From NCBI GenBank assembly GCA_043821645.1, contig JBDRCO010000122.1:1-33276 (forward strand): a stretch of DNA of 33,276 nt. Direction: 5' to 3'. The notes beneath the pieces were generated by a model that saw only the letters and a program-made list of their open reading frames with translations, was not told where the DNA came from and ran no database searches. This document shows, piece after piece, positions 2,678 to 25,331 of this stretch. The DNA is from Pseudomonadota bacterium (lineage in GTDB: Bacteria; Myxococcota; JACRCW01; JAFGSX01). Within the stretch, counting starts at the first letter, position 1, and each line of letters opens with the position of its first letter. A program made the position numbers and the translations under genes.

Positions 2678-4246
2678 ATGTTCGATGTCTTCGCGGCAGC
2701 CGGGTATCGTCAACGTTCGCCGTTCATCACCTGCTGCGCGGCGAGCCTCCTGCTCGTGGGGGTGGGCGGCTGCCCGGAAGCGCAAACCACAGGCAGCGCG
2801 GCCGACGCCGCCACCCTGGATTCGCAATCAGACCGGTGGGACAGCGCCACCGCGGCCGACGCTGCCGCCCTGGATTCGCAATCAGACCTGAGGGACAGCG
2901 CCACCGACGCCGCCGTCCTGGATTCGCAATCAGATCGGAGGGACAGCGCCACCGCGGCCGACGCCGTTGCCCTGGATTCGCAATCAGACCGGAGGGACAG
3001 CGCCTCCGCGGCAGATGCCGCTGGCGATGCCGCTGACGGGGCGGATGGAGGCGTGGGAGACAGCTCGGCGTTGGAGGATGCAAGCGAGGGCGATGACAGA
3101 CGCACCCAGTTCACCTGCAACCCCGCCACCACAGGCCTGACCGCACCCTTGCCCGAGTGTACGGTCGACAATCCCTGTGCGCGCCCCACCGGCCCAGACC
3201 AAACCGTACCCTCCGCGCCTCCCGACTGCCCCCTCAGCGATTGGGACGAAGTTGCCGAACAGCAGATCGTGGGGACCATGCGCTATGCCTGTATCCATCG
3301 CGCAGCCGCAAGTCCGAGACCGCTGGTTCTGTTTTTTCACCCGGGTGGCGACGGCGCGTCGGTGGTCTCGGCGACGTCGCTACTGGCCAGGTCCACGACC
3401 ACGAATCTCACTGGCGTCACGGGACAGACCGGATTCACGCTGCTCGCCATTCACGGGCGTCGCATCAGGTTTGGCACAGCCGCCAATCGTGACGGCGAGT
3501 ATCACCACGATTTCTACTATCGCGACCTGAGCTCACCCTCGACAAACCCCGACATCGCCAATGCCGACGCCTGGATCGACCGCATGATCAGCGAGGGCAT
3601 CGTCGACACCAACCGCATCTATGTGATGGGCTGGTCCAACGGTGCCTTCTTCGGACAGCTCTACGCCGTGGCACGTCACGCCACCGGCACCCCCGTGCAC
3701 CACGCTCGGGTGGCAGCGGCGGTGGTCTTCGCCGGCGGCGATCCCTTCAACGGCATCGACGCCAATCCCTTTGCGGATCCCTCTTTCTCGCCGACCACCG
3801 ACGGGGCAGAGTGCCAGCTGAGCACCTATCCCAGCTCGACCGTCCCCATTCTGCTCGTCTATCGAACCTGTGACGTCACCGTTCCCTGTGGTCCTGCCGA
3901 CATCGCCTGCTGGGGTACCAATCGCGGCTATCCCGTCGATTCCTGGCTCAGCAAGGCAGCCACGTACCTGCCCAACCTCACGAGCGTCATGATCAACGGT
4001 GCCGAACCCGAGCGCTCGGGCTTGCAAGACGAGACCGCCACCACCTGCTCGGACGTCGCGCCGAGATGCGGCAGCGAGACCCAGCCTTCGGCTCAGCAAT
4101 GCCTGGTCGACATCTCGGTCTCATCAACCGCCTACTGCCAGTGCTTCTTCAACCACTTGCGTTGGCCGGACAACGACTACCCCGGCTCGACGATCGATCG
4201 CGAGGCGGGGATGCTCCTCTACCTGCGCGCCAATCCTCTCAACTGA
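2678..4246 (+). CDS. Secreted/lipoprotein alpha/beta-hydrolase (PHB-depolymerase/esterase-like) with N-terminal Asp/Ala/Ser repeats
   Basis: Hydrophobic segment ending LLLVGVGGC, LVLFFHPGG (oxyanion region), DTNRIYVMGWSNGA (G-x-S-x-G nucleophile elbow), many Cys, C-terminal NHLRWP. Confidence 0.8.
   Translation: MFDVFAAAGYRQRSPFITCCAASLLLVGVGGCPEAQTTGSAADAATLDSQSDRWDSATAADAAALDSQSDLRDSATDAAVLDSQSDRRDSATAADAVALDSQSDRRDSASAADAAGDAADGADGGVGDSSALEDASEGDDRRTQFTCNPATTGLTAPLPECTVDNPCARPTGPDQTVPSAPPDCPLSDWDEVAEQQIVGTMRYACIHRAAASPRPLVLFFHPGGDGASVVSATSLLARSTTTNLTGVTGQTGFTLLAIHGRRIRFGTAANRDGEYHHDFYYRDLSSPSTNPDIANADAWIDRMISEGIVDTNRIYVMGWSNGAFFGQLYAVARHATGTPVHHARVAAAVVFAGGDPFNGIDANPFADPSFSPTTDGAECQLSTYPSSTVPILLVYRTCDVTVPCGPADIACWGTNRGYPVDSWLSKAATYLPNLTSVMINGAEPERSGLQDETATTCSDVAPRCGSETQPSAQQCLVDISVSSTAYCQCFFNHLRWPDNDYPGSTIDREAGMLLYLRANPLN
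2798..3020 (+). repeat. Intragenic tandem repeat, 4 units of 54/48/54 nt spacing (AADAAxLDSQSDRRDSAT)
   Basis: Core CTGGATTCGCAATCAGA starts at 2816, 2870, 2918, 2972. All spacings are multiples of 3. Confidence 0.95.
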
Positions 4247-13372: not shown

Positions 13373-14512
13373 TCAGGGCAGGAAGCTCTTGGGATTGGCC
13401 AGCTTGGCGGGCAGGTACTCATCCATGACGTAGTTGAGGCCCCACTTGGCCAGGGCCTGCTGCTCGGCGCGCACGCCCATCTTGATCTGCTGCTCCAGGG
13501 CCGCACGCCATTTGGGATGGGTCTCGAAGAAGGGATCGTTCTTCAGCGCGTCCCTGGCCCGCTTGATGTCCTGCTCGGTGAGCGGGTGGGTGGCGTCCTC
13601 GAGTTTCCAGTCGATGATGTCCTGGGGTGTTACACCCAGGAACTTGGCGTCGGGCACGCAATAGAAGCGGTTGATGTGCGCGGCGTTGCCCGAACCCACC
13701 TTGAGCGTGCGGTAGATGTTGGAGAAGCCGTAGGGGTCGCAGTCGGTGAAGGCAAACACGGGGATCTGCGCCGACTCGCTGAGGCGGCGGATGAAGCGGC
13801 GGCATGATCGGCTGGGCACGCCGTTCATCGACACGATGATGCAGTTCGACTTCTCCCAGAACTTGTGGCTCTGCAGGCGCTGGAACACGCCATGAGTCTC
13901 GATGGCGAGGATGAAGCTGGCCCTGGTCTTGAACTCGAGGTGCTCGACGAAGCTGGGTACGCTGTAGGCACCCGAGCCGAAGCGGGTGCAGTCGATGTCG
14001 ATGCGCTCGCCAGTCTCGCGATCCCGATCGATGACGACCAGTTCGCCGGCCAGCGCGCCACCGTGCTCCTGGGGGATGAAACGCATCTGCTCGCGCGTCA
14101 CGCCCCACACCGAGAACAGGGCCTCGAGATCGTCCATGACCTCGTCGCTCTCGGGCTGCTCCTTGAAGCGCGCGTCACCCCAGTTCTTGCTCTGGTAGTA
14201 GGCGTCTCGCTTGGTGGCGAAGTCGTCGGACTCGACCATGAACTTGCTCAGGGCCATCATCTTGAGGCTCTGGGCGAAGGTCTTGACGGTGTTGACGGTG
14301 AGGGCGCGGATCTTCTTGGCGCGGCCGATCTCGAAGAAGCCCTTCTTCACGTCGTAGTGCACGTTGGACAGGCTACGTACTGGAAAGGCCATCTCGGGCT
14401 TCTGGCCCTTCTGGATCTTGTCGTAGATGCCGCGCGCGCCCTCCTCGATGGCGGCGATGGTGGCGGCGTCCATCTTCTTGGCCTCGGGGCTGCGAAACGT
14501 TCTCTTGGCCAT
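13373..14512 (-). CDS. top6A: DNA topoisomerase VI subunit A (Spo11-like)
   Basis: TKRDAYY (catalytic Tyr region), Toprim LAIETHG and FTDCDPYG, NGVPSRSCRRF, RAEQQAL. Confidence 0.95.
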   Translation of the reverse strand: MAKRTFRSPEAKKMDAATIAAIEEGARGIYDKIQKGQKPEMAFPVRSLSNVHYDVKKGFFEIGRAKKIRALTVNTVKTFAQSLKMMALSKFMVESDDFATKRDAYYQSKNWGDARFKEQPESDEVMDDLEALFSVWGVTREQMRFIPQEHGGALAGELVVIDRDRETGERIDIDCTRFGSGAYSVPSFVEHLEFKTRASFILAIETHGVFQRLQSHKFWEKSNCIIVSMNGVPSRSCRRFIRRLSESAQIPVFAFTDCDPYGFSNIYRTLKVGSGNAAHINRFYCVPDAKFLGVTPQDIIDWKLEDATHPLTEQDIKRARDALKNDPFFETHPKWRAALEQQIKMGVRAEQQALAKWGLNYVMDEYLPAKLANPKSFLP

Positions 14513-14553: not shown

Positions 14554-16473
14554 CTACAGCTTGCGGCTGCGCTCGAGGATCTCGCGGATGGTCTGCACCG
14601 TCACCTGGGTCTGGGCCTGGCTCAGGCCGAGGATCTCCTGCAGCGCCTCACCGATGGGATCGATGTACTTGTGAATGTACTTCGCCTTCTTCTCCTCGTC
14701 GGCCTCGCGCCGCCGTCGCCGCACGTGGATCGCCAGGCGACGACCCGCCTCCTGCAGGGCCAGCTTGAGCTCGCGCAGGATCTCGGGGTAGTGGGCGATG
14801 GCTTCCTTGGATTCCGAGGTGTAGGGCACCCAGGCGCTGGCGATGTGGACCATGACCAGCATGGGTGCCGTCGGCAAGGCACCGCGGGACTGCGGGATGT
14901 CGTAGTTGCGCCACGCGGTCTGCATCACCGACTTGGTCATGGCGCAGGCCGACTGCTGGTACAGCAGCGGCACCCGGTTGGCGAAGCGAAACACCCGCGC
15001 CAGCTGATCCGCGGGCAAGGCCTTGCCGTAGGCGATGCCCACCTCGACCTGGAAGGGGTTGCCACGGTACACGGCCGGCGGACGCGTCACGGCGGTGACG
15101 AACATGCCCTGGGTCTCGATGCCACTGTCCGGGTCCACCTCGGCGGTGGCCACGATCTGGTCGACCAGCTCCTCACCCACCTCGTCGAGACTGGTCTGGT
15201 CCGCGTGCAGCAGGGCCAGCATGCCGCGCTGTATGGCCTCGACGCCGATGGGCGACAGACAGCTGGTGGGCGGGGCCATGATCTTGGTGGCCTGGATGGC
15301 CTGGTACAGGGCCTCGACGTGCTGGCGGTGCACCTCCGAGGTGGTGGTGCGCGGCCCGAGCTGTGCGGTCGCGAGGATCTCGCCGGCCACCTTGTCGCTG
15401 ACCCGCGAGAAGCTCTGCACCAGGAACTGGCGCACGGTCAGCCCTCGGGCCTCCTTGAGCATGCGCATCAGGATGCCCAGCTCGACACCGTGCGGGTGCG
15501 GCTGTATCTCCTGCGCCTCCTCGGGTGCCTGCGACACCACCCGCGCGAAGCGCAGGGCTGGACCCTTGGGCGGCACGTAGGCCAGCTCGGTGTGAGGGTT
15601 GGCCAGGGCCGTCTGCCTCAGATAGCTCTCGACCGAGTGCTGGCCTCCCTTGAACGAGGCCTGCAGCTCGATCTGCACCAGGGTGCCGCTCTCCTTTTCG
15701 TTCCAGTACGTATCGTCGGTCAGCACCTGATCACTCAGCACCACGGGCTGGTTCTTGATGGTGTCGATCTGCTGCTCGAGCCTGTGCACATCGCGGCCAT
15801 GGCCGGTCTTGGAGATGATGGTGATGGGCCGCCCGGTGGTGATCTGGCCGTACATGGCCGCCGCCGAGATGCCTATGCCCTGCTGGCCGCGCGACTGCTT
15901 GAGGCGGTGAAACTTGCTGCCATACAGCAGCTTGCCGAAGATCTTGGGCAGCTGCGCCTTGACGATGCCAGGGCCGTTGTCCTCGACGGTGACGATGTAG
16001 CGGTCCTCGCTCACTTCCTGGATGGCCACCGCCACCTGAGGAAGAATGCCAGCCTCCTCGCAGGCATCGAGAGCATTGTCCACTGCCTCGCGAACCGTCG
16101 TCAGCAGGGCCTTGTGCAGATTATCGAAGCCGAGCAGGTGGCGGTTCTTGGTGAAGAACTCGCTCACCGAGATCTCGCGCTGTCGGTTCGCCATGTCCTG
16201 CGCCGTCTGGCGCCGGGCGACCTTGGGCTGCCGACCACGCCGAGGCGTGTCCGCGATCACGGGCTCGGTGTCGACGGACAGCACGGCCTGGGCCGGGGCC
16301 GCGGCACCGTTGCCCTTGCGCTTCGGGGTGCTGGCGGCCGGGGCACGGCGCGGCGCCTTGCTCGGGGCCGACGCCAGGAACTCGAGCTGGTCGCCCTTGG
16401 CCTTGCCGTTGCGCTTGGACCCGCTGCCCTTGCGAGCCGGGGTCGTGCGCGAGATTCGTGTGGTGGAGCTCAC
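14554..16473 (-). CDS. top6B: DNA topoisomerase VI subunit B
   Basis: [20 protein letters not shown] motifs [42 protein letters not shown]; transducer [10 protein letters not shown] and [14 protein letters not shown] start with GAGG RBS. Confidence 0.95.
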
Positions 16474-20347: not shown

Positions 20348-21679
20348 CTAACGCTTCTTCGGCCGGCGCTTCACGGGAGCTTCGGGCCCTATGCTGGGCT
20401 GGTGGGGTCTGGCCGAGCGGTAGATCATCTTGTGGAAGCTCTGCGGCACCGCGCGCAAGAGCACCTCCCGGATGGCCTGGTCGCGCGCGGGCTGAAAGGG
20501 ATACAGGTCGTAGGCCACCAGCATCTCGTCGGCAAAGGCGGTCAAGGCAAAGGTCCCGCCCGAACCCAGGGCTGCGGCATAGCTCAGGGTGCGCTCGTCG
20601 CGGTGGCGAGTCTCGACGATGACCTCGATCAGGCTGTGCTGCTTGAGCGTGTCGATGGCGCCGTCGACGCCGTCGAGAGAGAAGCGCGCCGGGTCAAAGC
20701 CGCGCAGGTCGCAGGCCTGGTGGTGACGCACGTCGAGCTCGCTCGAGGTCAGGTCCAGGGGCGCGGCCTGGTCCAGGGCGTACACCGGTCTCGTCTCGCG
20801 GACCTTCTCGATCTCGATCAGGTCCGAGCGGTAGTAGTTCTCCCAGAAACCTTCCTCGTAATAGTGATTGAAGTCGTGGTGACGTGCCCGCACCGCAAAG
20901 CGCATGTCGCGCTGCACGGCCTCGAAGATCTCCACCGCGTAGGCGTGCATGGCGCACAGACAGGTGCCACCGGTCTTCAGCAGCGCCAGCCCGCGCGACA
21001 GGAACAGGTCAAAGCACTCGCGCGTCGACATGGGGTCGGACACCACGGCGTCGAACCGGGGCTTGCGCCGGGGCTGGGGCTGGGTCAGATCGACCTTCTC
21101 GACCTGGATGTCGAGCTTCCACTCTCGAGCCAGCCCACGCAAAAAGGGGATCAGCACCGCCTCGTCGATGTCGTAGACCGTGACACGGTGCCCGAGCAGG
21201 GCCAGGGGCACGCTCAGGAGATCGTCGTCACCTATGCACAGCACCTCGAGCGGACGCGAACCCAGCAGCAGTGCACGCCGTACCGCGGTCTCGGGCATCA
21301 CCGGGGTCTGGCCGTAGGCCTGCACGAAGATCTTGCGCCGCGCGTGGGCGCGCAGGGTCGGACCATAGACACGCTGGAAACGCTGACCCTCACGCCCGCC
21401 AGGACGCTGCCAGGCCCACTTGGCGGCCATGGCGTCGAGCCTTTGCTCGAGCACCGGGTCATCACCCGAGGGCTTGTCGGCCAGGAAGCCCAGGCGTCGC
21501 AGGGGCGCCAGCCTGGGGTCGTCGACCTGCGCGGGGTCGAGGCCAAACATCAGTGGCACCAGGATGTCGCGGTCGGCGGGCGAAATCTCGGCCTTGCCAA
21601 AAGACTGCACCGAGGCGGCCACGCTGTCCTTGCCATGAAGGTCGAGATTGACGTGGACACCGTCGGCGTAGGTGAGCAT
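20348..21679 (-). CDS. BpsA-like (branched-chain polyamine synthase, DUF43) aminopropyltransferase fused to a degenerate AdoMetDC-like domain
   Basis: YGQTPVMPETAVRRA, VLCIGDDDLLSVPLAL, VTVYDIDE, FDAVVSDP, LFLSRGLALLK, YRSDLI match the BpsA motif order. C-terminal HHQACDLRGFDP...VAYDLYP resembles the SpeD/SpeH fold. Start moved to ATG 21679. Confidence 0.75.
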   Translation of the reverse strand: MLTYADGVHVNLDLHGKDSVAASVQSFGKAEISPADRDILVPLMFGLDPAQVDDPRLAPLRRLGFLADKPSGDDPVLEQRLDAMAAKWAWQRPGGREGQRFQRVYGPTLRAHARRKIFVQAYGQTPVMPETAVRRALLLGSRPLEVLCIGDDDLLSVPLALLGHRVTVYDIDEAVLIPFLRGLAREWKLDIQVEKVDLTQPQPRRKPRFDAVVSDPMSTRECFDLFLSRGLALLKTGGTCLCAMHAYAVEIFEAVQRDMRFAVRARHHDFNHYYEEGFWENYYRSDLIEIEKVRETRPVYALDQAAPLDLTSSELDVRHHQACDLRGFDPARFSLDGVDGAIDTLKQHSLIEVIVETRHRDERTLSYAAALGSGGTFALTAFADEMLVAYDLYPFQPARDQAIREVLLRAVPQSFHKMIYRSARPHQPSIGPEAPVKRRPKKR

Positions 21680-21725
21680 GGCGGTCTCTCGCTCGACGCC
21701 GGGGCACCCGCTCGAACCAGGCACG

Positions 21726-22379
21726 CTAGCGTCGACGGAACAGGTTGAACTCCTGGCTCAGGTCCTCGGCCAGGCGATCGAAGGCCGAGGGGCCGAACAG
21801 GTACTGGTATTCCTCGCCGTGCGCCCGTGCCCAGGCTTGCAGGTAGCGCTTGAGCTCCACCGTCTCGGGGCGGACCTCGTCGTCGACCACCACCTCGGCT
21901 TGCTCGACCTCGGGATCCGGCGGAGGTGGCAGCTCGAGCGACCAGCCCGGCTCCTCCTCGCCCTCGATGCGGTTCATCTTGCACCAGTCGAGGATGAACT
22001 GGTGCACCAGCACATCGCGGAAGGCGAACCAACGCTTGCGCTCCTCGACATGCTGGGCGATGCAGTCCTTGAAGCGCCGGAACGCACCCTTGCCGACGAT
22101 GGCATCGCTGAGGCGCTCGGCCAGTGCCGGGTAGGTCACGGTCGCGATGAAGCGCTCCATGATGCGGTACTGCTCGCGGCTCGGCACCGGTTCGACGAAC
22201 AGGAAGCGCTCGGGGTTCTCGCGAACCTCGACGCCACGCGCGGTATCTGCCTCACCCCCGACGAGGCTGAGCAGTTCGCCGCTGTGCCTGTCCAGATAGG
22301 AGCGCACCTCGGGAGAGTGGTTCTCGAAGGCCGCCTCGAGGGCGCTCCAGTCGACCGCTATCTTGCTCACATCACTCAC
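21726..22379 (-). CDS. UPF0158-family protein
   Basis: GTG with GAGGA RBS; VDWSALEAAFE, YLDRHSGE, SREQYRIMERFI, LSDAIVGKGAFRRFKD, RWFAFR. Confidence 0.9.
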   Translation of the reverse strand: MSDVSKIAVDWSALEAAFENHSPEVRSYLDRHSGELLSLVGGEADTARGVEVRENPERFLFVEPVPSREQYRIMERFIATVTYPALAERLSDAIVGKGAFRRFKDCIAQHVEERKRWFAFRDVLVHQFILDWCKMNRIEGEEEPGWSLELPPPPDPEVEQAEVVVDDEVRPETVELKRYLQAWARAHGEEYQYLFGPSAFDRLAEDLSQEFNLFRRR

Positions 22380-22565
22380 GCAGCGTCCTCGCGTTCGGTC
22401 TGAACAGATCGAGATATCACGCCCATCCAAGTCCCCGCAATGATCGGGCAGCCACACCCCCGCCCTGGCCGATGCACTATACTGGGACCGGCACATCCAT
22501 GCTCGTGAGCCCACGACGGTGCCGGGACATAGCAGGACCCGGCTCGGGCTCGACAGGAGAGGTTC

Positions 22566-25331
22566 ATGAAGCGACCTGTCGCCACCAGGAGTGGAGTCCG
22601 GCTGCTGGTGCCTGTGCTTCTCGTGTTCACCGCGGCCTGTCCGGAGTGTGCGCCGGGCACGAGTACCCTGCGCTTCGACTGCAAGACCAGCACAGAGTGC
22701 ACCGTGGGTTTCGAGTGCGTGGCGGGCGAGTGCGTGCGCGAGGGCGCGCGGATCGACGCGGCCTTTATCGACGCGGAAGCCGCGGACGCGCCCGGCACGG
22801 ACCACATGGCCACGGACCGGACCTCGGCGGATCTGTCCGCTGCAGACGCACAGGCCGCCGACACCCAGGCCGACGCTGGCGCCCAGGACGTCGCTGGGAT
22901 GGACGCCCCCGGACTTGACGGCGCGGCCTCGGATTCGATGGTCGTTGATTCCACTTTCGACGCGGCCTTGATGGACGCCGCAAGATCCGACACGGCCCTC
23001 AACGATGCCACGCTCGACGACGCAGCGGGCATCGACGCGGCCACCGGCGACGCCGGGACCTGTGCCCCCGATGCCGGCAGCAGCCCGTGGACCCTGACCC
23101 CCGCCATGTCCAGGCGTGCCAGCGGAGGCCCCTTTGCCGTCGCCACCGGTATCCAGGGCGCGGTGCGTGCGGATATCTGCACGCGGGGCGACGCCATCGC
23201 CGTGGCCCGGGGCAGCTACCTGGGCCGGTCCTTCTACCAGCACTTTGACCCCACCCAGGGCAGCCTGGTGGTCTGGATCAGTCCGGAGTGGGACGCCACC
23301 GACCTGCAGGGCGAAGACCGCACCCTGCTGGCTGCAGGCGACTTCGAGTTCGGAGTGGACGCCGCCACCCTCGGTGCCTTCCTGCGGCTGGGCAACAATC
23401 GTCACGTGATGCCCGGCGCCTTCGATACCTGGCTGGCCGGGGACACGCACTTCGTGGTGCTGCGCTGGGACGCCCAGCACGACATCGGTGCGGGCCGGGT
23501 GTCCCTCGTCGTCGACGACCACGCCCCCTACGAGATCGCGACCAGCATCGTGGTGACCGAAGTGGCGGACCCCATCATCCTCGGCGCCGCGGACCTCGAG
23601 GGACGTGGCTCCCTGGGGGCCCTGCTCGAGGGTCTCACGATCTACCGACGCGTGCTGGCGGACTCGGCGGGCGGTGTGAGCCTGGGTCATGACGACGAGG
23701 TGGGGGAGATCTACGCTGCCGGTCCGGGCACCGAACCCACCCTGATCACCGGCTCCTGGGATGTCGTGCTGGCCCTGCCCGGCGACGCCGAGGAAGGCCT
23801 GCTGCCCGCCACCGGCCAGGCCTTCAGCCACCCGCACAGCGCCAACATGCTGGGAATGCCGGGCTACTTGCTCGCGCCAGCGGCCCGGCAGGCCTGGGAA
23901 CTGGTGCAGGCGGGCTCGAACAATGTCTCCCTGTCCGGAGCCCAGCCGCAGCAGTGGATCTACGGTGCCGCGAGCCAGCTGACGACGACGGAGGCTGGCG
24001 CCGGCATGCGCCTCTCTGCGAGCACCGGGGGCGCGACCTCGCTGGTACTGCGCGCCATCGTGCACTCGGACGGGACAGCCATCCCCGCCCTCATCCTGCA
24101 GAATGCGTCGGGCAACGACATCACCGCGCTCACGGGCAGCGCCGCGACCAGCCGCGACCACCCCGACGTCCTGATCCTCACCGCCGAGATACCGGCCAGC
24201 CCGGCCCTCGTGCACGTCATGCTGGTCAATCGCGTCTCGACCAACAGCTCGATCTTCGTGCACCAGGTCGAGGTACTGCCCAACTTGCTCGCCAACCCCT
24301 CGTTCGAGACGGGGAGCGACGTCGACCCGACGTGGCAACCCGACGACTGGCTCAACCACTCCACGAGCGCGCTGAGGACCTACAAGGAACAGTCGACCGT
24401 GCACTCGGGCGCCACGGCCGTCGCCATAGAGGGCATCGGGACCGGCGGCTACCACGACATCCGCACCCTAACCAGCGTGCCAGGGCTCAACCAGCTCAGG
24501 CACTTCTTCGGCACCGGCGCCATGTTCTGGTCGAGCTCGGGCGCGGCGCCGGGCATCCGGCCGGACAACGGCTGCTTGATGCAGCTCGCAGCCCCTGTGG
24601 GCAAGTTCGACGTTCGAGGGAGACCGGTCACCGGCACCTGGCAGCACGTCGCGGGCGTGGGCCGACGCCACGACGTCTACACCGACGGCGGTGTCAACTG
24701 CCAGAACGACATGCTGCGCTTTGGCGGTCAGTGGGGCGCAGCCCTCCAGGCCATCATCGACGATGCCTACCTGATCCACCTCGAGCAGGTCGACCTCACG
24801 CCTCTGCCCGCAGATCTCTCGCGATCCCTCGAGCAGGGCTACGTGCGCCACGACGGCGAGGACTCCCTGGCGCAACCCATCACCGATCTCACCGCCAACA
24901 GTGGCCGTATCGATCTGGCTCTCGGACTCAACCACCCGGTGAGCCTGCGCGACACCTTCTGTCCCTACGACGCGGTCCTGTGGCAGGCCTGGAACGACGC
25001 CAGCAACAACATCACCCTGCGCTTCAACTGGGACCAGAGCTCGAGCCGCGTGGGCATACGCGTCGACGCCTATTTCGACAGTCAGCACTTCGACTACGTG
25101 GTGCTGGGCTTGCCCATCGACGGCATGGCCACGCACGTGGTGAGTTTCAGCTACCAGACCGGCGGCCGCCTGCAGCTCCTCCTCGATGGCGATCCGGAGC
25201 TCGACCAGCCCATGGGGAGCATGGCATTCGGCAGAATCCCCGAGACCCTGTATGTGGGCCATGACCACCTGGGCGATGGGCTCTGCGACCTGCGCGTCGA
25301 CGTCAACGGCGCCAGCTTCAGCACACCCTGA
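22566..25331 (+). CDS. Large surface lipoprotein-like protein with Cys-rich module, Asp/Ala linker, LamG-like and CBM4/9-like domains
   Basis: RBS AGGAGAGG; FTAAC; CKTSTECTVGFECVAGEC; DA repeats; LamG-like QGSLVVWISPEW..HFVVLRWD..LVVDD..LTIYRRVL; CBM-like NLLANPSFE..VHSGATA..WQHV..IDDAYL. Confidence 0.8.
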   Translation: MKRPVATRSGVRLLVPVLLVFTAACPECAPGTSTLRFDCKTSTECTVGFECVAGECVREGARIDAAFIDAEAADAPGTDHMATDRTSADLSAADAQAADTQADAGAQDVAGMDAPGLDGAASDSMVVDSTFDAALMDAARSDTALNDATLDDAAGIDAATGDAGTCAPDAGSSPWTLTPAMSRRASGGPFAVATGIQGAVRADICTRGDAIAVARGSYLGRSFYQHFDPTQGSLVVWISPEWDATDLQGEDRTLLAAGDFEFGVDAATLGAFLRLGNNRHVMPGAFDTWLAGDTHFVVLRWDAQHDIGAGRVSLVVDDHAPYEIATSIVVTEVADPIILGAADLEGRGSLGALLEGLTIYRRVLADSAGGVSLGHDDEVGEIYAAGPGTEPTLITGSWDVVLALPGDAEEGLLPATGQAFSHPHSANMLGMPGYLLAPAARQAWELVQAGSNNVSLSGAQPQQWIYGAASQLTTTEAGAGMRLSASTGGATSLVLRAIVHSDGTAIPALILQNASGNDITALTGSAATSRDHPDVLILTAEIPASPALVHVMLVNRVSTNSSIFVHQVEVLPNLLANPSFETGSDVDPTWQPDDWLNHSTSALRTYKEQSTVHSGATAVAIEGIGTGGYHDIRTLTSVPGLNQLRHFFGTGAMFWSSSGAAPGIRPDNGCLMQLAAPVGKFDVRGRPVTGTWQHVAGVGRRHDVYTDGGVNCQNDMLRFGGQWGAALQAIIDDAYLIHLEQVDLTPLPADLSRSLEQGYVRHDGEDSLAQPITDLTANSGRIDLALGLNHPVSLRDTFCPYDAVLWQAWNDASNNITLRFNWDQSSSRVGIRVDAYFDSQHFDYVVLGLPIDGMATHVVSFSYQTGGRLQLLLDGDPELDQPMGSMAFGRIPETLYVGHDHLGDGLCDLRVDVNGASFSTP

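Follow-up and report, generated by a model that had tools for sequence, protein, structure and literature searches.

The window analyzed here, a stretch of 33,276 nucleotides that covers positions 1 to 33,276 of contig JBDRCO010000122.1 (assembly GCA_043821645.1, a bacterium recorded under Pseudomonadota and assigned by GTDB to the Myxococcota), encodes on its minus strand a protein in which a catalytic part resembling the branched polyamine synthase BpsA is followed by a domain with the predicted fold of S-adenosylmethionine decarboxylase (AdoMetDC) that lacks the residues of self-processing. On balance, we favor the view that this protein is an aminopropyltransferase of the BpsA type, dependent on decarboxylated S-adenosylmethionine (dcSAM), whose relic AdoMetDC domain has become a pairing (dimerization) module; the transfer, the acceptor and the pairing are all matters that we infer from the comparisons set out below.

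The gene lies within a longer minus-strand open reading frame (ORF; 20348-21724) that contains an internal ATG at 21679 and whose stop codon occupies 20348-20350. Because eight homologs (P0002-P0009) begin at the same methionine (MLTYADG), the gene is taken to extend from 20348 to 21679, which are also the limits assigned to it in a first-pass annotation made from the sequence alone. Database records name these proteins only as 'bis-aminopropyl spermidine synthase family protein' and leave the C-terminal domain unannotated, and a scan of the protein against NCBIfam returned nothing meaningful, its sole match being TehB at 13 bits against a cut-off of 303. The AlphaFold2 model of the full-length protein, built from 15 family sequences, has a mean predicted local distance difference test score (pLDDT) of 87.8 and a predicted TM score of 0.73.

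That the N-terminal and central parts are BpsA-like, as the first-pass annotation had held, is upheld by Pfam, by a sequence search of the PDB and by fold. Family PF01861 (BpsA_C) matches residues 114-292 (20801-21340 at the genome level) with an E value of 1.8e-23 and 83.5 bits against a cut-off of 27, and translation recovers every BpsA motif that had been listed (YGQTPVMPETAVRR, IGDDDLLS, YDIDE, SDPMST and FLSRG). A profile of the family found 2qm3 (3.8e-25) and 5xnc (5.1e-24) among PDB sequences. When the full model was compared with PDB structures by Foldseek, the top nine matches were all BpsA or its P. furiosus homolog, with E values from 2.3e-14 to 1.8e-11 (2qm3 at 2.3e-14; 6j27, 5xnf and 5xnc at about 1e-13), and with 21-23% identity to the BpsA structures over 295-330 columns of chains 338-354 residues long.

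Residue by residue, the catalytic part follows BpsA at the donor side and departs from it at the acceptor side. According to the available part of PMC12979288, the GDDD motif of T. kodakarensis BpsA (Tk-BpsA) positions the aminopropyl group of dcSAM, and Asp225, Glu259, Tyr290 and Tyr316 belong to its acceptor site. We mapped these residues with a chain offset of 20, which was verified in that D225, E259 and Y290 land on D, E and Y. The GDDD, the DxD of YDIDE, D215 and Y273 are invariant in all 15 family members. At the acceptor site, the Glu259 column is occupied by Ala246 beside an invariant His245, and Tyr316 and the acidic carrier cluster of BpsA (Glu339, Asp342-Glu345) fall outside the alignable region. 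A 26-residue acidic linker (pLDDT below 50 at residues 313-316) takes the position of BpsA's flexible acidic C-terminal region and, going by that position, may be the equivalent of the carrier region. Judged from these alignments, the machinery for handling dcSAM looks intact and the acceptor site looks unlike that of BpsA. An ordinary class I methyltransferase, the other identity considered for this part of the protein, is unlikely: the place of the Gly-rich motif is taken by GDDD, and BpsA structures give the best fold matches.

The C-terminal stretch that had been aligned by eye with SpeD/SpeH (20440-20728, residues 318-414) coincides with a confidently modeled domain (residues 319-422), which reached a pLDDT of 82 when folded alone. 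In a Foldseek search of the PDB with this domain (hereafter the C-domain), ranks 1-5 were taken by prokaryotic AdoMetDCs, with Aquifex 2iii at rank 1 (E value 1.3e-5, TM scores 0.58/0.67, root-mean-square deviation 2.9, 107 columns) followed by T. maritima 1tlu, 1tmi and 1vr7, and human spermine synthase 3c6k appeared at ranks 6, 7 and 10. VIA-align, a structure search that is independent of Foldseek and was run against 48,161 representatives, again put 2iii at rank 1 (Z 10.5) and 1vr7 at rank 3 (Z 9.8); the second-best match was the N-terminal domain of 3c6k (residues 5-120, Z 9.9, root-mean-square deviation 2.7 over 95 residues). With class 1b AdoMetDCs leading in both searches, and with the profile homology described next, the AdoMetDC fold proposed for this domain is borne out.

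Profile-profile comparison by hhalign, in which a 38-sequence alignment of the C-domain was set against 28 AdoMetDC domains from genomes of the same phylum, gave a probability of 87.1% (P 4e-6, score 37.3, 84 columns). Controls stayed far below these values: a reversed template scored 9.9, 40 column-shuffled templates scored at most 16.2, and no control exceeded a probability of 1.4%. When eight AdoMetDC domains of the fusion type were added to the template, the probability was 83.6%. The hhalign alignment reproduces the one made by eye and places GSGGTF on the segment with E-S-H; the H-x3-D-x2-G element of that earlier alignment (H320...D324..G327) fits the N-terminal strand of AdoMetDC by eye and lies outside the hhalign coverage. 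In addition, a hidden Markov model (HMM) of the C-domain matched one bona fide SpeH ORF (E value 3.6e-4, in a small local set).

The same register indicates what the domain has lost. In T. maritima numbering, G374-G375-T376 correspond to Glu62-Ser63-His64, T380 to His68, D391 to Asp79 and P394-F395 to Thr82-Cys83. His68 and Cys83, whose positions here come from the alignment, we take to be catalytic residues. Ser63 is the processing residue, as stated in the title of entry 1tmi. Because the equivalents of the cleavage Ser, His68 and Cys83 are all gone, no pyruvoyl group should be able to form, and the C-domain is predicted to descend from AdoMetDC without any capacity for self-processing. The sequence bears out the term 'catalytically dead', applied to it before any database was searched: the Ser position holds Gly in 36 of 37 members, and His68 and Cys83 are replaced by Thr380 and Phe395. 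An active bifunctional enzyme, which we also considered, is ruled out, there being no Ser at the cleavage site.

What remains conserved in the relic is concentrated where catalysis used to be. Among 37 non-redundant members, P394 is present in 37, G375 in 36, H320 in 31 and G374 in 30, and position 324 is Asp or Glu in 30; these five best-conserved positions (P394, G375, H320, G374 and D324) map to T82, S63, H7, E62 and E11 of the T. maritima enzyme, H320 and D324 by eye. The conserved core of the relic is therefore predicted to be the former AdoMetDC active site at the interface of the pair. A His follows Gly-Gly in 21 of the 37 members (the window protein has Thr376), and members of clade I read [E/D/K]-G-H-x-x-x-H, as against E-S-H-x-x-x-H in AdoMetDC. 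One protein, P0036, is the sole member whose C-domain (residues ~301-435) has Gly-Ser-His rather than Gly-Gly-His at the former cleavage site.

The family is a rare one. A search of 1.84 billion proteins with the C-domain profile retrieved 22 cluster representatives at E values up to 1e-3, comprising the family plus one spurious RTX/DUF4347 protein (P0033, with five short Gly-rich stretches). Pfam assigned PF01861 to 12 of the 18 representatives that were new; four were short proteins (94-222 residues) without a family, which may be fragments, one had a weak methyltransferase match, and one was the spurious hit. None of the 18 has PF02675, the AdoMetDC family, in the Pfam scan. The C-domain occurs in 19 of 401 sampled genomes from the window's phylum, and the full-length relatives that have record titles come from metagenome-assembled genomes (MAGs) of Myxococcota, Deltaproteobacteria, Bdellovibrionales and Planctomycetota; in Paenibacillus, archaea and others, the match is confined to the catalytic core. 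In a quick IQ-TREE tree of 60 rows, with support from the SH-like approximate likelihood ratio test (SH-aLRT) only, proteins bearing the C-domain group together as a single clade (52 rows, support 96), outside which eight canonical PF01861 proteins fall, and both paralogs of the source genome sit in one subclade (support 99). The family has a single origin and is a clade separate from the BpsA enzymes of thermophiles.

Eight of the 65 PF01861 loci outside the family hold a single ORF in which BpsA_C is followed by a two-CxxC linker and an intact AdoMetDC, so the same domain order also exists in live form. These proteins, of about 515-540 residues, come from Dysgonomonas and other Bacteroidota and from Roseburia and other Bacillota (L137:5617-7170, L112:2648-4186 and L132:5611-7152; also L135, L136, L139, L148 and L150); the three that were scanned match PF02675 at 130-144 bits, all eight keep ESH...TC, and the linker is Zn-ribbon-like and about 90 residues long. 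Against the full length of these fusions, hhalign aligns the family over residues 1-322 only (99.8% probability). A common origin of the relic-type and the intact BpsA-AdoMetDC fusions is plausible.

PF01861 homologs are also frequent in Paenibacillus, Brevibacillus, Cohnella, cyanobacteria and diverse archaea (loci L094-L158), and a free AdoMetDC gene adjoins the BpsA homolog in L154, L134 and L096. The statement that BpsA is mainly described from thermophiles, made in the first-pass annotation, needs qualifying: homologs are common in Paenibacillus, Dysgonomonas and Roseburia, which are not known as thermophiles. The spread of the homologs also contrasts with a 2026 review (PMC12979288) that describes BpsA in its available part as phylogenetically confined to thermophiles.

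Gene content ties the family to the supply of dcSAM. An AdoMetDC gene is present in all ten C-domain genomes that were also searched for PF02675, as against 22 of 51 others, although genomes that are related do not count independently. Six of the ten carry it on the strand of the transferase gene, at a distance of 2.1-3.6 kb. After genes at the loci had been called with a caller based on third-position GC content (GC3) and classified with Pfam and local HMMs, the local HMMs found AdoMetDC in eight of 22 distinct family loci and a further gene, here called X, in 11. The typical operon order is AdoMetDC (with ESH intact), X and transferase. Lying directly upstream of the transferase, X is its paralog across both domains (hhalign 98.6%, 295 columns) and keeps the same C-domain, with GDVDG, DDPDG or DDLDD in place of GDDD, which makes X a candidate pseudoenzyme partner of the transferase. 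The operon link to an intact AdoMetDC is a link of pathway, not of binding. A cassette of this kind lies at L061:4668-7836 (+), followed in some loci by a 130-residue ORF without a family, and similar cassettes occur in L058, L068, L059, L060, L062, L065, L083, L084, L087 and L080. For SpeE (PF01564), genomes G055, G030, G037 and G044 contain only weak partial matches inside ORFs of ~550-1,350 residues, and G022 has a strong match; in the former four, dcSAM may be consumed mainly by the BpsA-like enzyme.

The genome from which the window comes has a stand-alone SpeH with ESH intact on contig C76 (L159:6026-6499), between a kinase gene and dnaK and unlinked to either paralog, and on contig C113 a second full-length paralog with GDDD and GGG (L063:6818-8155), unlinked to the window gene. 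In the scheme that we favor, the stand-alone SpeH would supply dcSAM, from which the BpsA-like enzyme would transfer aminopropyl groups to an acceptor polyamine. The relic domain would be kept as a structural module that pairs with another domain of its own fold, whether in a homodimer or with the second paralog, and the paired relics would hold the enzyme in a working oligomer, a part played in human spermine synthase by the N-terminal domain. The class 1b AdoMetDC fold is an obligate face-to-face pair of beta-sheets, with the active site between the two protomers, and because the fold exists in this form, the relic most likely pairs as well. The case for pairing draws further on the recurrence of paralog pairs that share the domain (a degenerate X stands upstream in 11 of 22 loci, and the source genome has its two unlinked paralogs) and on the precedent of human spermine synthase, whose N-terminal domain, according to the available part of PMC12803844, goes back to a bacterial AdoMetDC fusion, is no longer active and is indispensable for its part in forming the dimer. 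A predicted homodimer of the C-domain (residues 12-125 of the C-domain alignment) scored 0.22 against a mark of 0.42, a value obtained without controls that is uninformative either way.

Several results weigh against this reading. Model PF02675, which does match two other genes of the same genome, finds nothing in the protein at E values up to 1; the C-domain profile finds no PDB sequence at E values up to 10, and no canonical or free AdoMetDC is among its 22 matches in the 1.84 billion representatives. Because these searches gave no AdoMetDC match, the proposed homology of the C-domain to AdoMetDC would have to be carried by the fold and one profile-profile result. Unrelated alpha/beta folds reach Z 8.6 in the VIA-align list, a margin of ~1.2-1.9 Z units below the AdoMetDC matches, and against the eight low-diversity fusion-type domains alone the hhalign probability is 1.3%, with the register unchanged. 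ESM Atlas yielded no usable feature match, and its structure rows were all below the bar (AdoMet_dc at row 6). The neighbors of the gene in the window (UPF0158, DUF4139, a DHH phosphoesterase and topoisomerase VI) have no link to polyamines and are not conserved in the closest relative, G029. Finally, identity to BpsA is only 21-23%, Glu259 is replaced by Ala and nothing in the protein clearly answers to the acidic carrier cluster, so that the acceptor, and the reaction itself, could differ from those of BpsA.

The last of these points leads to the possibility that the BpsA-like domain is not an aminopropyltransferase at all, and transfers a methyl or carboxyaminopropyl group or nothing. Along with the low identity and the lost Glu259 equivalent, weak matches of relatives to methyltransferase families and the separation of the clade from canonical PF01861 proteins would fit this. 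However, GDDD, by which dcSAM handling in BpsA is defined, does not vary within the family and is lost precisely in the degenerate X, and eight loci link the gene to AdoMetDC; we give this reading little credence. Convergence of fold, with the C-domain as an unrelated alpha/beta sandwich that merely resembles AdoMetDC, could account for the lack of direct sequence matches, for the many unrelated folds at Z 7-8.6 and for the weak hhalign result with the low-diversity template. It is very improbable given that AdoMetDCs hold Foldseek ranks 1-5 and VIA-align ranks 1 and 3, that the profile alignment runs motif on motif in register and far above its controls, that the C-domain HMM picked out a bona fide SpeH ORF, and that the same domain order is known with an intact AdoMetDC.

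Two other explanations accept the ancestry of the relic and give it a different task; channeling or sensing of dcSAM, and partnership with a separate AdoMetDC, had been suggested in the first-pass annotation. If the relic were a ligand sensor, its pocket would bind S-adenosylmethionine, dcSAM, 5'-methylthioadenosine or a polyamine and regulate the transferase allosterically, which would suit the concentration of conserved residues at the former substrate pocket (H320, D324 and, in 21 of 37 members, the His after Gly-Gly). Yet those residues also lie at the interface of the pair, so that pairing explains their conservation equally, and the window protein has Thr rather than His at 376; a sensor seems distinctly unlikely. 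As in a prozyme, the dead domain might instead pair with the genuine stand-alone AdoMetDC, activating or stabilizing it and handing dcSAM to the BpsA-like site in a metabolon. In favor of such a pair, class 1b enzymes have their active site between two protomers and the best-conserved residues of the C-domain map there; other clades have an intact AdoMetDC gene next to the transferase gene and on its strand; there are ancestor-like proteins in which BpsA is joined to an intact AdoMetDC; and a heterodimer of AdoMetDC with a dead homolog has been solved from T. brucei (5tvf, Z 7.3 in the VIA-align list). Against it, the SpeH on C76 is unlinked to either paralog, and the linkage in operons, as said, speaks for a shared pathway and not for contact; we regard this partnership as unlikely. 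A more far-reaching scheme, which we consider rather doubtful, would make the dead AdoMetDC domains the docking units of a hetero-oligomer of transferase, degenerate paralog and genuine AdoMetDC, in which dcSAM would be made and consumed without release; this would constitute a SpeE-independent route in Myxococcota, Bdellovibrionota and relatives to a branched or long-chain polyamine unrecognized outside thermophiles.

Table 1. Features of the transferase gene and its upstream neighbor, in window coordinates.
Feature	Position	Strand	Basis or remark
Whole gene, 443 codons plus stop (protein P0001)	20348..21679	(-)	ORF list, translation
N-terminal domain, residues 1-113	21341..21679	(-)	Colinear with N-terminal domain of BpsA-type proteins
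BpsA-type catalytic (Rossmann) domain, residues 114-292	20804..21340	(-)	PF01861
GDDD motif, G150-D153	21221-21232	(-)	Gly157-Asp160 of T. kodakarensis BpsA; aligns to GDDD of 5xnc and 2qm3
D215, equivalent of acceptor-site Asp225 of Tk-BpsA	21035..21037	(-)	Alignment
Invariant H245, adjoining the Glu259 column of Tk-BpsA (Ala246 here)	20945..20947	(-)	Alignment
Y273, equivalent of acceptor-site Tyr290 of Tk-BpsA	20861..20863	(-)	Alignment
Linker, residues 293-318, with acidic D303, D309, E314 and D316	20726..20803	(-)	pLDDT, sequence
Predicted pseudo-AdoMetDC domain, residues 319-422, beta-alpha-beta4-alpha-beta	20414..20725	(-)	Domain model, fold matches
G374-G375, at the self-cleaving Glu-Ser position of AdoMetDC	20555..20560	(-)	hhalign register, T. 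maritima numbering
Disordered tail ending in basic run KRRPKKR	20351..20413	(-)	pLDDT below 50 at residues 424-443
UPF0158-family gene	21729-22397	(-)	Ends 46 nt upstream of the transferase start

The basic tail listed in Table 1 is of a kind that ends many members of the family, and it has longer counterparts, rich in Lys, Arg, Ala and Pro, in P0003 (up to ~35 residues), P0007, P0021 and L057:5079-6428. These tails resemble those of histone H1 and might bind nucleic acid or another polyanion. The UPF0158 gene may be co-transcribed with the transferase, a pairing not seen at the locus of the closest relative (L066), and the DUF4139 gene downstream of the transferase is convergent with it. This bacterial contig also carries, side by side, the genes of both topoisomerase VI subunits, A and B (with Spo11/Toprim and transducer/GHKL domains), at 13376-14512 (-) and 14557-16473 (-), a fragment of an IS110-family transposase (PF02371) at the contig edge (2-778 (+)), and two long ORFs of high GC3, at 22566-25328 (+) (921 residues) and 2678-4243 (+) (522 residues), that match no Pfam family at E values up to 1e-4. 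Elsewhere in the source genome, contig C126 (L160:5180-6469 (-)) encodes a 430-residue fusion of an AdoMetDC-like domain to SpeE (PF02675 at 80.5 bits, PF01564 at 193 bits), the decarboxylase half of which has Asn-Ala for Glu-Ser and Gly for Cys83. This protein is a putative bacterial counterpart of animal spermine synthase and its dead N-terminal domain.

If the favored reading is correct, the family would be a second independent case in which a decarboxylase was fused to the transferase that uses its product and was then reduced to a structural relic, the history proposed for animal spermine synthase; its transferase scaffold is unrelated to that of the animal enzyme, and its relic sits at the other terminus. 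It would point to a general rule, by which a class 1b pair that holds an oligomer together outlives its chemistry. The presence of BpsA-type enzymes in Myxococcota-like bacteria, and of related intact fusions in Bacteroidota and Bacillota, would raise the question of which polyamines these organisms make, and the operons of AdoMetDC, GDDD-less paralog and transferase look like an enzyme/pseudoenzyme pair amenable to testing. As to novelty, the architecture was, according to the first-pass annotation, not known to have been described. For the BpsA type this stands, in that we found no description of such an enzyme joined to an AdoMetDC domain, whether intact or dead, in literature that includes subscription journals to a limited extent; for aminopropyltransferases at large it does not, the available part of PMC12803844 providing the precedent of a dead AdoMetDC domain in human spermine synthase.

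Among known systems, BpsA (EC 2.5.1.128; PF01861; 5xnc, 5xnf and 6j27, with homolog 2qm3) shares with the window protein the N-terminal and Rossmann domains, the overall fold, GDDD, DxD and the equivalents of Asp225 and Tyr290. Unlike BpsA, the window protein belongs to a separate clade at 21-23% identity and has Ala beside an invariant His in the Glu259 column; where BpsA ends in a short, acidic, flexible C-terminus, it continues into the linker and a domain of 104 residues. The hosts differ as well, being thermophiles for BpsA in the available part of PMC12979288 and, for the present family, the Myxococcota, Deltaproteobacteria, Bdellovibrionales and Planctomycetota represented by the MAGs.

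The domain itself is closest to the class 1b AdoMetDC, or SpeH (PF02675; 2iii, 1tlu, 1vr7), with which it agrees in fold, in strand order and in a profile that stays in register over 84 columns. That enzyme is free, whereas the window domain is fused, lacks the equivalents of the cleavage Ser, His68 and Cys83, and has no match to the Pfam model. Catalytically dead AdoMetDC-fold units have been retained elsewhere, in the T. brucei prozyme (5tvf) and in the degraded SpeD2 domain of Victivallis vadensis, which is kept for pairing according to the available part of PMC10407285; these units pair with an active AdoMetDC, and the window unit is attached to a transferase. The bacterial fusions of AdoMetDC with an aminopropyltransferase (AdoMetDC-SpeE or AdoMetDC-spermine synthase, and the BpsA-AdoMetDC ORFs) likewise combine a decarboxylase fold and a transferase in one polypeptide, the BpsA-AdoMetDC ORFs even in the same domain order. 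The latter are distinguished by Glu-Ser-His...Thr-Cys, a PF02675 match and a two-CxxC linker of ~90 residues, as opposed to Gly-Gly, no PF02675 match and a linker of 26 residues in the window protein.

In design, the nearest parallel is human and other animal spermine synthase (3c6k), also an aminopropyltransferase carrying a class 1b AdoMetDC-fold domain that lacks catalysis. The two likely share a type of history, in which an active fusion arose and the decarboxylase function was then lost, as suggested by the available part of PMC12803844 for the one and by the intact fusions for the other. In spermine synthase the transferase is of the SpeE type (PF01564) and the relic is N-terminal; in the window protein the transferase belongs to PF01861 and the relic is C-terminal. 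Dimerization through the relic domain is established for the human enzyme and is what we infer for the window protein. The resemblance is one of analogous design, not of membership: the window protein joins a presumably BpsA-like chemistry to a spermine-synthase-like design, and is a full member of neither group.

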